This document shows, one piece after another, positions 51,220 through 54,495 of a stretch of DNA of 64,000 nt (its first letter is position 1; every line of letters begins with the position of its first letter). A program made the translations under genes and the position numbers. Origin of the DNA: Gemmatales bacterium (GTDB lineage: Bacteria; Planctomycetota; Planctomycetia; Gemmatales; HRBIN36); contig JBEPZY010000002.1 in the NCBI GenBank assembly GCA_041640595.1, forward strand, positions 532,651-596,650, given 5' to 3'. The notes under the pieces were generated by a model, which worked only from the letters and a program-made list of their open reading frames with translations, was not told where the DNA came from and did no database searches.

Positions 51220-51630
51220 GTCCGCTTCTCCTGATGGCTTCCAGAAAGGCTAGATTTCGGTGCTCATGACGCACCTTCTTTTGCGGCAACGCTTCAGACG
51301 AGAATCGCCCAGCAGCGATTCCTGTTCGGTCTCCTTCCTGGCAAACATTATGGCAACTGCCAATGCGATCGGCAAAATTAACCGCCGCGACCCTTAGGCT
51401 GACGAGTGCTAATTTCCCGACCTGTGAGCGTCTCGCTCTGGCCCATAAGCAGCCATTTGTTCCTGACGTGCATTGAAATCCTGGCGATTGCTTATGCTCG
51501 CAGACTTGCCGACCAGTTCACCAGCTAATCGTACCGCGTTACCCCGACGGTTTCGCATCCGCTAAAATCTTTTCTGCCCCTGGACGAGATCCCGAATGCC
51601 CTGGTGAGGCCTTTTATGGTTTCGCGTTCA

Positions 51631-51680
51631 CAAAAAATTTTTTCGCCCCTCTTGACGCTTCCCTGGCCGCCGGATAAGCT
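51631..51680 (+). promoter_or_regulatory. Sigma70-type promoter with UP-like A/T tract
   Basis: TTGACG (51652-57), 17-bp spacer, TAAGCT (51675-80), preceded by CAAAAAATTTTTT. Confidence 0.65.
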
Positions 51681-51692
51681 ACCTGTAGCGGG

Positions 51693-51729
51693 ATAGAGTT
51701 GAGGAGGACAAACCGGAATAGAGTTGAGG
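51693..51729 (+). repeat. 12-bp direct repeat ATAGAGTTGAGG, period 25
   Basis: Exact copies at 51693-51704 and 51718-51729, just downstream of the predicted transcription start. Confidence 0.75.
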
Positions 51730-51782
51730 CGCGGCGGAACCAGTACCATTTCTCAGGGGTCTTTCCAGAAAGGAGGTGTGTC

Positions 51783-51949
51783 ATGCGGAAGCTGAAGACA
51801 CACACACACACAGGGGTATTTTGCGCTCTGCTTTAGACCTGTGTGTGGGCTGGCTGCACCGTCCGGCCAGGTCTCGTCCACGTCAGCCTGAACCCGCCCG
51901 ATTGCAGTTCGACTTGTTGGAGGACAGAACCGTGAAATGGGTGCCATAG
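51783..51949 (+). pseudogene. Frameshifted, internally deleted remnant of a LEDR-leader (planctomycete extracellular) protein gene
   Basis: AGGAGGT RBS and ATG 51783; stops at TAG 51834 as written; removing one CA gives MRKLKTHTHRGILRSALDLCVGWLHRPARSRPRQPEPARLQFDLLEDRTVKWVP*. Confidence 0.6.
51798..51812 (+). repeat. (CA)7 dinucleotide microsatellite five codons after a start codon
   Basis: ACACACACACACACA; no comparable tract was noticed elsewhere in the window. Confidence 0.9.
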
Positions 51950-51984
51950 GTCAAACTGCGGGGGCAGAATAGGAGGAGATCAAC

Positions 51985-52458
51985 ATGCGATATCTGGCCG
52001 TGATCCTAACTCTTGCACTAAGCATCCCGTTACTTGCTTGCCTTGGGCAGGATAGACGCACCGAACAGGAGCAAAAACTCCTTCGCCGGCTACAAGGGCT
52101 ATGGCGTTTGACGGAAGCGGCGGGGAAAAGACCCGACGGTAAAGTCGACAAGACCGCTTTCGCCAAAGGGCCAATCTGGATGATTCACAAGAACTTTCTG
52201 TACTTTCATGATGACTATGGCAATCCACGCTCCATTCGGCTCGAAATTGACGCCTCGAGCGAACCTGTCAGGGTGGACCTGATCGAGCAGCCAGACTTAG
52301 AAAAACCGGCGTTTTGTCTGCTAGGCATTCTTTCGCTGGAGAAAGACCGACTATACATATGCTATCATCATAAATTGCGCCCTCAGAGCTTCGACCTGAA
52401 GGATGAGGCTGACTTCACCCGAATGTGGATTTTCGAGAGATTCAAAGAGCAGGATTAG
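51985..52458 (+). CDS. TIGR03067-like domain protein, predicted lipoprotein
   Basis: LQGLW...IDASSEP..VD...GI.SLEKD.L.IC...RPQSF...FER; lipobox LLAC; RBS AGGAGG. Confidence 0.8.
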   Translation: MRYLAVILTLALSIPLLACLGQDRRTEQEQKLLRRLQGLWRLTEAAGKRPDGKVDKTAFAKGPIWMIHKNFLYFHDDYGNPRSIRLEIDASSEPVRVDLIEQPDLEKPAFCLLGILSLEKDRLYICYHHKLRPQSFDLKDEADFTRMWIFERFKEQD

Positions 52459-52700
52459 TTGAATGCCACACATGAGTGGGGAAAGACTGCCTGAACTGCA
52501 ATTCGATCAACAACGCGTGTTTCGAGACGTGGGCCCATCGGGATATCCCTGTCCGGTTTTAGCCGGACTTAGAAAGAGCGAGTTGTCAGGCCACGGAGGC
52601 ACTGGGACCGTCAGCCGATCAAATCGGTGAAGTCAATGCTGCTCATGAAAAGAATCAGCATTTCTGATCACCGTCGGGCCAAGTGTGGGAGGAGATAGCT

Positions 52701-53162
52701 ATGCTGACTACGTGCTGGGCCATCTGCTGGCTTGCGGAGCTGACCTTGGCGCGGTTGGATCCGATTAGGAGTAAGTACTACACAGACCTGCAATTGATGC
52801 AGGGCGAATGGGAGTTAGTAACTATGGAACCCGAGTTTCAGAAGGAGCTGTTTAAGGGGATGCGCCTGACCGTCAAGGGGAACACAATGATCAGCCGGTT
52901 CGGCAGAGGTACTTCAAAGAGAGAGATAGAGTTCCGCTTTATCCTCAGGCCGCAACTTTCGCCCAAGGGAATAGACTCCTTTGACCCCGATCAGCGCGAC
53001 TCGCCGCCAGGCGTGGCCATTTACGAAGTCACCGAACATCTCCTGATAATCCTCGACCATGCAAAGGTCGGGGAGGGTCGGCCAAAGGATTTCTCTTTTC
53101 CCGACCCAGATGACAATGATTACTACTTTTACTGCTTGATGGTCTTTCGCCGGGTGAAATGA
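52701..53162 (+). CDS. TIGR03067-like domain protein
   Basis: MQGEW...LTVKGN...SPKGID...AIYEV...RPKDF...VFRRVK; hydrophobic N-terminus; RBS GGAGG. Confidence 0.8.
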   Translation: MLTTCWAICWLAELTLARLDPIRSKYYTDLQLMQGEWELVTMEPEFQKELFKGMRLTVKGNTMISRFGRGTSKREIEFRFILRPQLSPKGIDSFDPDQRDSPPGVAIYEVTEHLLIILDHAKVGEGRPKDFSFPDPDDNDYYFYCLMVFRRVK

Positions 53163-53277
53163 AGCTGCGGCCCAGGAAAGGTGATGCTGCTAAGCTGCTA
53201 CAGGGGCAGCAAGAGTTGGCAAGACACGACTGCTTGTACGAACCCTGAGCCGTGAACTAGGTGCATGCTGTAAACGC

Positions 53278-53968
53278 ATGGCAGAATCAGTAACCAGGGT
53301 CTATTCGTCGGAATTGGCCGGACCGCCTACGCGCCTCGAACTCCCGAGAGCGGGCGAAGTGGACGCCAACGGGGAAGCCGTGATTCGCGGAACGATTCAA
53401 CCGCACGGTGCCGACGAAGCTACGCAGTATTACCTGCCGCGTTTCCGTGCTTGGGATGATGCCGGCTCGAACGCGCTGTCGCCGTTCGTACAGCTCGCCG
53501 CCACGGATTTCAAAGTGAGTGACGGTGGTCTCCATACGGCCGGTCGGTACATTTCGCACGGCCTCGGACGGAGCCGTCTTGCTCAAGGAGGGAGACACGC
53601 TCAGCTTCGACGTCTGGATTGGGGGTGTTGGCGGCGGTGGCTCCATGCCTGGCTGGGACGGTAATATTCGGTGGGGAGTATTTGACGATGACCCGGGATA
53701 CGACGACCTTATCAAGGACTACTCTTCCGTAACACCCGATCTGTTGGCTCATCCGAATCCGACAGGTGCCTGGCAGGTTAATGCAGGGACTTTTACGCTT
53801 CGAGCGAGCCGCGGTGAGATTTATGGGGACGCAGGGGTCGGGTTAGGTGTCGGCTGGAAAGGCGATATTGAAGTCTATGTTCATATCTGGTGGTACTGCA
53901 ACTGTCCTTGTTGCTGGGGCGGGTACGACTACAGATCGTATATAGTTCGCGTGAGGTATGAGCCCTAG
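53278..53968 (+). pseudogene. Orphan C-terminal module of a secreted protein, frameshifted by a 4-bp duplication
   Basis: ORFs 53278.. and 53519..53968 join in frame (…DFKV-TVVSIR…) if one GTGA of GTGAGTGA (53515-53522) is removed; no RBS or signal peptide. Confidence 0.6.
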
Positions 53969-54018
53969 AGTTAGAACTCGCTGCTTGCGATCGGTGGCAA
54001 CGGGCGGAGGGACTAAGC

Positions 54019-54495
54019 ATGAGCTCGAAAGTAAGGCTATTAGCTATTCGAGCCATCAAGATTTCGATGGTAGTCTTGCCCTTATGTCTTGTTGTTTTCG
54101 TCCTGGGAAGGGTGGAGCGATACCAGGCTATCCAAGGTAAATGGCAACTGGTCGAAGTACGCGGCAAGAGTGGCGACGAAATTTTGACGAGGCCAGGACC
54201 ACAGGGGACAGGTTTTTGGATCGTCGGCAACTGGATAAAGCCGTATGGCCACGGCTGCGAGGAGTGGGGACTGGGAGCTTTGCTGGTTTTGCACGGTAAC
54301 CCAAACGAGCAATGTTGCGACGGCCATATCGTATTCCCGCACTTGCTGGGAATCTATAGTACGCCAACCCTACTGGCTTTCGAGAACGATAAACTGCTCA
54401 TCGGCATTCGCGGGGGCGGACAACATCCGAGAACATTAGATTTGCAAAATGCGCCGGACGGCACCAGAATATGGGTACTAAAGCGTGATCGCTAG
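54019..54495 (+). CDS. Divergent TIGR03067-like domain protein
   Basis: N-terminal TM/signal; IQGKWQLV...FENDKLLI...HPRTL...WVLKR; RBS GGAGG. Confidence 0.65.
   Translation: MSSKVRLLAIRAIKISMVVLPLCLVVFVLGRVERYQAIQGKWQLVEVRGKSGDEILTRPGPQGTGFWIVGNWIKPYGHGCEEWGLGALLVLHGNPNEQCCDGHIVFPHLLGIYSTPTLLAFENDKLLIGIRGGGQHPRTLDLQNAPDGTRIWVLKRDR

Follow-up and report, generated by a model that had tools for sequence, protein, structure and literature searches.

A deletion allele of a polymorphic cassette

The window analyzed here is a stretch of 64,000 nucleotides from a Gemmatales bacterium (assembly GCA_041640595.1, contig JBEPZY010000002.1, positions 532,651 to 596,650 of the forward strand). Between its genes for a Gfo/Idh/MocA oxidoreductase and an isochorismatase, as assigned with Pfam/NCBIfam, lies a polymorphic cassette block (51631..54495, all features on the plus strand). 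At this site a gene for a stalk protein with an export-type leader (the head) ends in a swappable C-terminal domain (the tip), and small partner genes follow. The window holds a deletion allele: the head gene is lost, a remaining tip carries a 4-nt frameshift, and three partner genes, g1, g2, and g3, are intact.

A candidate promoter was read by eye at 51632..51680 (an A/T tract, TTGACG at 51652-51657, a 17-nt spacer, and TAAGCT at 51675-51680). The equivalent site in a sister species is TTGACG-17-TATGCT; the site in the window falls below the threshold of a consensus promoter scan, and promoter and terminator scans of the block were at chance level. Downstream, a Shine-Dalgarno sequence (51771-51776) and an ATG (51783) open an out-of-frame peptide of 17 codons (51771..51836), the ATG being enclosed by an inverted repeat (GTGTGTC at 51776-51782 and GACACAC at 51797-51803). 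There follow an (AC)7 tract (51798..51811), which leaves the leader at -1 relative to the ATG and would bring it into frame with 6 or 9 units; a putative planctomycete export leader of the LEDR type (51812..51934, up to LEDRTV), which shares 38% identity with leaders that are in frame at other places in this genome; and, after a deletion junction behind 51934, KWVP* (51935..51949), the final codons of the deleted head gene's tip. The leader frame, read at -1 to 51949, ends LEDRTVKWVP*, as had been proposed for a leader remnant; Pfam/NCBIfam gave no match for this remnant. The remainder of the block comprises g1 (51985..52458), an intact gene for a TIGR03067-like, putatively exported protein; g2 (52701..53162), an orphan partner that is likewise intact and TIGR03067-like and is preceded by no tip; a leaderless module (53278-53968, ending RVRYEP*) made of a pre-tip stalk segment (53278..53514) that precedes different tips, a 4-nt insertion at 53514, and a variable tip predicted to be an Ig-like (immunoglobulin-like) beta-sandwich (53519..53968); and g3 (54019..54495), an intact, divergent TIGR03067-like gene for a predicted lipocalin-fold barrel with an N-terminal hydrophobic helix.

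The initial annotation was thus partly confirmed: gene order and coordinates, from the Shine-Dalgarno sequence, ATG, and leader frame through g1, g2, the module, and g3 to both flanks, were correct, with qualifications for the promoter, TIGR03067 scores, lipobox, and base composition. For the last, its spot G+C counts were right (42, 45, and 68%), but the dip is mild, with 54.2% G+C in the block against 58.9% in the window and 57.6% in the genome; values this low recur in 12.7% of 4350 genome segments of equal size, and low G+C was rejected as strong evidence. An Rfam search of the locus gave no match. The spacer between g1 and g2, considered as a tip remnant, was rejected as such; it matches one metagenome locus (L054, below) alone. 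Runs that contain at least half of the window's sequence words are labelled hot-spring or microbial-mat metagenomes.

Intact and deleted alleles occur side by side

The leader pattern retrieved four metagenome loci, of which L052 and L053 come from a sister species and L055, judged by a flanking gene, from the same species, the fourth being L054. Together with seven runs that have cover at the contig level, they form our survey of the AC tract and the deletion junction; contigs of X9 and X16 come from RNA runs and were used as sequence, not as a sign of transcription. In L052/L053 and L055 the head is intact, the LEDRTV of the leader being followed by PSC and then by an Ig-repeat stalk with its tip. 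The head tip of L052 ends YVKWVR*, and its DNA matches the KWVP* remnant of the window. A full-length head of this locus, P0043, carries the window's own tip, and L054 has the layout of the window with the tip intact.

Because the same deletion junction recurs in L054 and in X1, X2, X3, X5, and X10, assembly error was ruled out as its origin. Both junctions are present in X5 and X10, and the intact one in X16, so that "decaying," the term first applied to the cassette, fits the head and tip of the window allele but not the system as a whole (intact heads beside the deletion allele in two of four runs). Four runs divide evenly over the 4-nt insertion at 53514: X1 (possibly the source) and X3 have it, and X2 and X9 lack it. 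The window is identical to L054 over 51301-53100 and has 3 to 10 differences per 200 bases across the module, a confinement of sequence divergence that suggests module exchange. Among same-genus genomes, the site holds an array in G003 (G003:C41) and none in G001 or G002; G004 also has none.

Tips are exchanged at a common pre-tip segment

P0043, L028, L031, L048, L051, and L055 confirmed that the module serves as the variable C terminus of LEDR-leader proteins. One head may carry several tips, that of the window in P0043 and others in L055 and L052/L053. The exchange occurs at a single junction: the pre-tip segment is common to P0006, P0007, P0008, and P0012, which part ways at an ATDF junction, and in run X9 two other tips are joined at 53510 and 53513. 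The segment also precedes other tips in L014, P0007, P0008, and P0012, and leaderless downstream tip/partner cassettes that share it are found in L013, L014, L028, and L053. It is likely a recombination handle, and recombination would be the route by which tips are swapped.

No Pfam or NCBIfam family was found for the tip. Intact alleles of it are P0006 and L054, and a model of P0006 gave an all-beta tip (10-residue predicted local distance difference test [pLDDT] values of 67-97 from residue 91). The best fold matches were tied Ig-like sandwiches: RbmA (Z 8.7, root mean square deviation [rmsd] 3.3, 108 aligned), ICAM-1 (Z 8.4), and PECAM-1 (Z 8.3). Nanobody matches obtained with Foldseek were rejected as homology at an rmsd of about 8-12 Å, and a match to BtaeB-NTD (Z 7.7) was within background. 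The 20-row tip alignment, on which all conservation counts are based, has no invariant column, the best-kept residues being Gly, Phe, Trp, and Val. The tip is modeled as an Ig-like sandwich, and it has no invariant catalytic residue.

The family is narrow, with 30 matches among 1.84 billion representative proteins, one of them annotated as from a Gemmataceae bacterium. Within one order it was found in 6 of the 267 genomes, and a smaller profile found it in 4 of 401 genomes of a class-level sample; across the phylum, the window's own genome was the only one of 401 sampled to have it, with none in the 400 others. A word-index search in which the tip alignment was used to look for longer proteins found none among 8000 candidates, which is weak evidence; a search for related loci with P0013 as the query found nothing; and the best ESM Atlas scores, 0.79 and 0.84, are leads only. 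In comparison with L053, at similar synonymous divergence, the tip has an omega of 0.34, g3 one of 0.53, and the oxidoreductase gene one of 0.04. Against L054, the tip has 11 nonsynonymous and 2 synonymous changes, too few for a claim of positive selection.

Two further observations concern the tips. The head tips of L052 and L053:10101-10658 differ almost solely in a C-terminal loop, and both head genes have a frameshift where the tip begins. In G003, one tip/partner module forms an exact tandem duplication of 1301 bp (L014:2304-4864).

Tips and partner genes are linked and co-vary

Profile searches bore out three TIGR03067-like genes in part. g1 (E 4e-10, 39.9 bits, or 40.4 in a second scan; model positions 4-107) and g2 (E 8.6e-10, 38.8 bits, or 39.4 in the second scan; positions 2-106) match near the family cut-off of 40.15 bits, but g3 gave no match to the model at E ≤ 1 and joins by profile-profile match only: a four-sequence g3 profile aligned with eight cassette partners at an hhalign probability of 97% (E 1.2e-10, 120 columns). 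The g3 model consists of a helix and a barrel (pLDDT 87.6). A protein of the lipocalin-like kind (Z 9.8, rmsd 2.8, 93 aligned) and potempin E (Z 9.5, rmsd 2.8, 89 aligned) tie as its closest fold matches. BtaiB (PDB 9jdd) is also among the fold neighbours of g3, at a score (Z 6.6, rmsd 4.2, 93 aligned) within background. The suggestion that g1 encodes a lipoprotein finds a candidate lipobox, LLAC19, by eye, but the Cys is not conserved among the partners.

The nearest relatives of g1 among the partners (32% and 31%) come after tips of the FYVxWxP/FYVQVTP class, and by this comparison g1 is likely the partner of the deleted head tip. g2 is 48% identical to an L053 partner that comes after a different tip class. 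A 59% homologue of g3 in L053 comes after a tip 77% identical to that of the window, which makes g3 the likely cognate partner of the window tip. Partner genes stay intact after tip loss, g1 and g2 being 100% identical in L054. The TIGR03067 domain is also fused to other domains in some proteins, and in G484 a (GT)10 run directly follows a TIGR03067 gene (L049:8571-8590).

We counted as paired each tip with a partner-profile match within 300 nt. By this count, 19 of 26 tip sites have an adjacent match (15 of 22 after removal of four redundant copies), as had been proposed for tips and TIGR03067-like genes, a figure that is partly circular because the profile was built from cassette partners. 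With the curated TIGR03067 model, 10 nonredundant adjacent partners match and 5 do not (L049 and L055 left out). The seven tip sites missed by the partner profile are varied. At L049 the partner begins 23 nt after the tip and was missed because of an overlap cut-off; the third module of L014 and the second of L028 are followed by barrel-like motifs, seen by eye, with no profile match; L048 has one intervening gene and then two TIGR03067 genes; L029 and L050 contain tandem double tips with other neighbours; and L031 is a weak fragment. In L053, tip and barrel alternate strictly through five successive modules. Among the 15 listed members of each cluster (of 24 and of 28, respectively), eight tip-cluster members have a longest contig of the same length as that of g3-cluster members.

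Co-variation was assessed in 15 pairs, from which copies, fragments, and unpaired tips were excluded and in which the motif-only partner of L014 was included. Tip identities correlate with partner identities (Mantel rho 0.39, p 4e-4), and in 8 of the 15 pairs the closest tip is accompanied by the closest partner. At the level of genetic pairing, a tip mostly has its own adjacent, specific partner gene.

The leader is held out of frame by a dinucleotide tract

A motif of the LEDR type, LxLExLExRxxP near the N terminus, is described as an export signal in PMC8567305, and LQFDLLEDRTVP in intact alleles of this locus fits it, with substitutions. The whole 4.4-Mb genome of the window (G000) has only three dinucleotide runs of at least 12 nt, and since all three lie inside such leaders, the (AC)7 run is beyond chance. 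The tract has 7 units in six runs and in L052-L054 and 8 units in L055 and X16; because both -1 and +1 alleles thus occur at this locus, a fixed -1 programmed frameshift was rejected. Of the array-type leaders in G000, G002, and G003, 0 of 12 are in frame (5 at -1 and 7 at +1), as expected for a costly gene; the 12 are not independent, since several are orthologues or paralogues. The sole in-frame case is a paralogue, P0025. Other LEDR leaders with a Shine-Dalgarno sequence and ATG are mostly in frame and have AC runs of at most 6 nt.

Every array-type leader has inverted arms, GTGTGT..ACACAC or TCTCTC..GAGAGA, and the AC inverted-arm pattern gave 11 matches at five sites in G000 and 0 in a reversed control. 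In the window, the inverted repeat with such dinucleotide arms (GT/AC or TC/GA) brackets the ATG at 51776-51803. Since gene callers place head starts downstream of the true ATG (P0039 and P0043), the putative switch is hidden in annotations. The AC repeat probably acts as a switch that seldom turns the stalk gene on. This may occur by slippage of the tract in DNA, with selection against the on state, or alternatively by a 2-nt slip during expression. The description of the locus as phase variable stands insofar as the frame depends on a tract within the 5' coding region whose length varies (7 versus 8 units), but none of the seven runs and four metagenome loci surveyed had an in-frame allele of this locus.

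Sister loci carry toxin modules behind the same leader

Five further loci in G000 have the same leader type, and three of them carry typical toxin modules: RNAse_A_bac (E 9e-29) beside CdiI_2 (E 1.2e-16) at C2:394-407 kb, a CDI_toxin_EC869_like nuclease (E 2.3e-14) at C3:561 kb, and a PT-HINT head (E 2.1e-17) at C3:425 kb. The stalk repeats of this head family are He_PIG/Big_9. The Ig-like tip therefore occupies the slot that toxins hold in sister loci.

These loci differ in detail. L056 (G000:C2:394287-407600, minus strand) has an (AC)10 leader, He_PIG stalks, the RNAse_A_bac tip with CdiI_2, helical modules with WD40-like partners, and, after a different tip, two barrel-like genes, one matching TIGR03067 at E 0.0013. 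L057 (G000:C3:611001-617600, minus strand) has an (AC)6 leader, Big_9/cadherin stalks, and two tips without a family, each followed by an exported protein. In L080 (G000:C3:561700-570450, plus strand), an (AC)5 leader and a He_PIG head precede the CDI EC869-like nuclease tip, with a small gene 3' of it; there is an additional tip with a leucine-rich-repeat protein. L081 (G000:C3:419400-425940, minus strand) combines a (TC)5 leader, a PT-HINT head of 1698 codons, an orphan post-HINT module, and small genes 3', with candidate CRISPR type III-like genes, by eye, immediately downstream. L058 (G000:C8:40379-44000), a paralogue of the C2:407 kb head, has (AC)4, an intact frame of 800 codons, and a tip with a partner. 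Two near-identical in-frame LEDR-leader genes with a common upstream region are found at G000:C2:1-630 and C3:549440; their repeats are presumably of the ELWxxDGT type.

A putative toxin system and its rivals

We lean, with modest confidence, toward the reading that the locus is a disarmed polymorphic cassette in which swappable Ig-like tips on stalks poison non-kin while the cognate barrel neutralizes the strain's own tip. A minority of cells would have the head gene turned on because the AC tract slips, either in DNA or, during expression, by 2 nt. The LEDR leader would export the Ig-repeat stalk protein with its tip, and the tip, a predicted nonenzymatic Ig-like domain, would bind an envelope target of neighbouring non-kin cells and poison them. 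The barrel encoded behind each tip would bind and neutralize that tip outside the cytoplasm, and recombination at the common pre-tip segment would exchange tips. The architecture, the presence of several tips on one head and at one junction, the positional linkage and co-variation, and the variation in tract length are observed; export, tip-partner binding, toxicity, recombination, and slippage are inferred, toxicity mainly because the Ig-like tip sits in the slot held by toxins in sister loci. With the head deleted, the spare tip frameshifted, and three partner genes intact, the window strain would be immunity-only. The initial interpretation was sound in its polymorphic-cassette architecture, but not in giving TIGR03067 a general role or in system-wide decay; nor does its planctomycete-level scope hold as stated, the tip family having been found in just 6 of the 267 genomes from a single order and in 0 of 400 others sampled over the phylum.

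Several results weigh against poisoning by tips with dedicated immunity partners. Co-transfer of neighbouring genes would equally yield tip-partner co-variation, and the survey found no in-frame tract allele of this locus. The 11 further TIGR03067 loci from G235, G376, and G003 have a tip beside none (0/11), nor has either of two more in the window's own genome; TIGR03067 as a general immunity family, as first suggested, was rejected. The tip shows no catalytic fold and no invariant polar residue, and no enzyme-toxin fold is prominent in the tip fold lists, which leaves room for one. The acidic D56/D58/D63 motif is present in 12-13 of the 20 tip rows and missing in one tip class, and the L052/L053 partner is 99% identical despite the differing C-terminal loop of the head tips. 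P0030 (signal peptide, tip, and PEP-CTERM tail, E 2.9e-4), P0033 (signal peptide, tip domain at the N terminus, then another domain), and the tandem tip pairs with no following partner in L029 and L050 would suit an adhesin.

Lock-and-key kin recognition without poisoning, in which a tip binds the matching barrel on or in kin to drive adhesion or a signal and extra partner genes broaden the set of strains recognized, we regard as unlikely. In its favor are the likeness of the tip to Ig domains of the adhesion type (RbmA Z 8.7 and ICAM-1 8.4, tied with generic sandwiches), the existence of a PEP-CTERM-anchored version, the co-variation of tips and partners, and the fusion of TIGR03067 to other domains. 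Against it, toxin-immunity loci of the nuclease type are headed by leaders of the same type, none of 12 loci has its leader in frame, and the partners, whose N-terminal hydrophobic segments are ordinary, give no hint of being displayed on the surface. The nonenzymatic Ig fold, the partly conserved acidic motif, a repeat-switched leader as in adhesins, and the tip loop swapped in L052/L053 over an unchanged partner could also point to a variable adhesin, whose tips bind surfaces or glycans while the barrel caps or folds the tip in export like a pilus chaperone. We consider this somewhat less likely again, as g1 and g2 are retained intact after tip loss (100% identical in L054) and the stand-alone tips of P0030 and P0033, known as protein sequences alone, show no need of a fused partner. 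That tip and barrel merely co-travel in a hypervariable island that gathers small exported genes seems improbable: TIGR03067 genes are common and mostly alone, linkage by itself gives co-variation, and 7 of 26 tip sites have no adjacent profile match, but the tip-then-barrel order is strict over five modules in L053, and the same pairing is found in two families.

The cassette offers some TIGR03067 proteins a role that can be tested for the first time, and it defines a variable family of Ig-like tips that is unannotated and sits in a toxin slot. It also reveals a planctomycete polymorphic-toxin chassis, represented in this one genome by six loci whose leaders are of the LEDR export type and whose repeat tracts are out of frame. 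If toxic, the tip would be a nonenzymatic binder toxin, and its target would single out something essential in the unusual envelope of planctomycetes; if not, it would belong to a recognition code of a new kind. A bolder idea, which we hold to be speculative, is that Gemmatales maintain a library of stalk-borne, antibody-like single Ig domains, exchanged as cassettes and each with a matched lipocalin-like receptor, as a nonenzymatic lock-and-key identity code on the chassis of a polymorphic toxin, with genes deliberately kept out of frame and expressed only via slippage at the hairpin-flanked tract.

Relation to known systems

Dinucleotide repeats in the 5' coding regions of Helicobacter oipA and babA give phase variation. 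As there, the tract described here lies just after the ATG, sets the frame, and differs in length between strains; unlike there, the tracts are short (3-10 units), an inverted arm lies upstream, and 0 of 12 genome loci are in frame. Polymorphic toxin loci of the CdiA, Rhs, and MafB types carry orphan modules. The locus resembles polymorphic toxin systems, as set out by Zhang et al. in 2012 (PMC3482391), in having an export signal, a repeat stalk, a variable C-terminal domain, and an adjacent partner gene, in its leaderless downstream modules with a common pre-tip segment, and in sister loci with typical toxins. It differs in its LEDR leader and He_PIG/Big_9 stalks, as opposed to FilH or RHS repeats, in a tip without a known toxin fold, in an exported lipocalin-like barrel partner, and in a leader repeat tract with inverted arms. 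Planctomycetes are listed there among the hosts of polymorphic toxins, and the main text makes no mention of Gemmata, lipocalin, cadherin, or phase variation; its supplements could list these loci. Literature searches, with most subscription papers outside their reach, found no paper on TIGR03067 and no description of this system.

For the partners, the nearest family is TIGR03067 itself, nearly the whole model of which aligns with g1 and g2, at scores at or below the cut-off; most of its members do not lie beside tips. According to PMC9890683, potempin E of Tannerella forsythia, a lipoprotein with a barrel fold, acts as an inhibitor of the partner with which it is co-transcribed. Like g3, potempins are small eight-stranded barrels; they are membrane anchored and linked to one secreted partner that they block specifically. 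They lie upstream of peptidases, whereas the barrel here lies downstream of a nonenzymatic Ig domain in swappable arrays; g3 and potempin E are 16% identical, and a common fold shows no function. As proposed here, the periplasm-acting effector Bte3 of Bacteroides fragilis and its lipoprotein immunity protein Bti3 combine an envelope-acting toxin with an exported immunity protein, but Bte3 is delivered by a type VI secretion system and ends in an open barrel (PMC13402684). We propose that the locus represents the polymorphic-toxin design in a new form, with a tip family that lacks annotation, an out-of-frame leader, and a role for a subset of TIGR03067 proteins.

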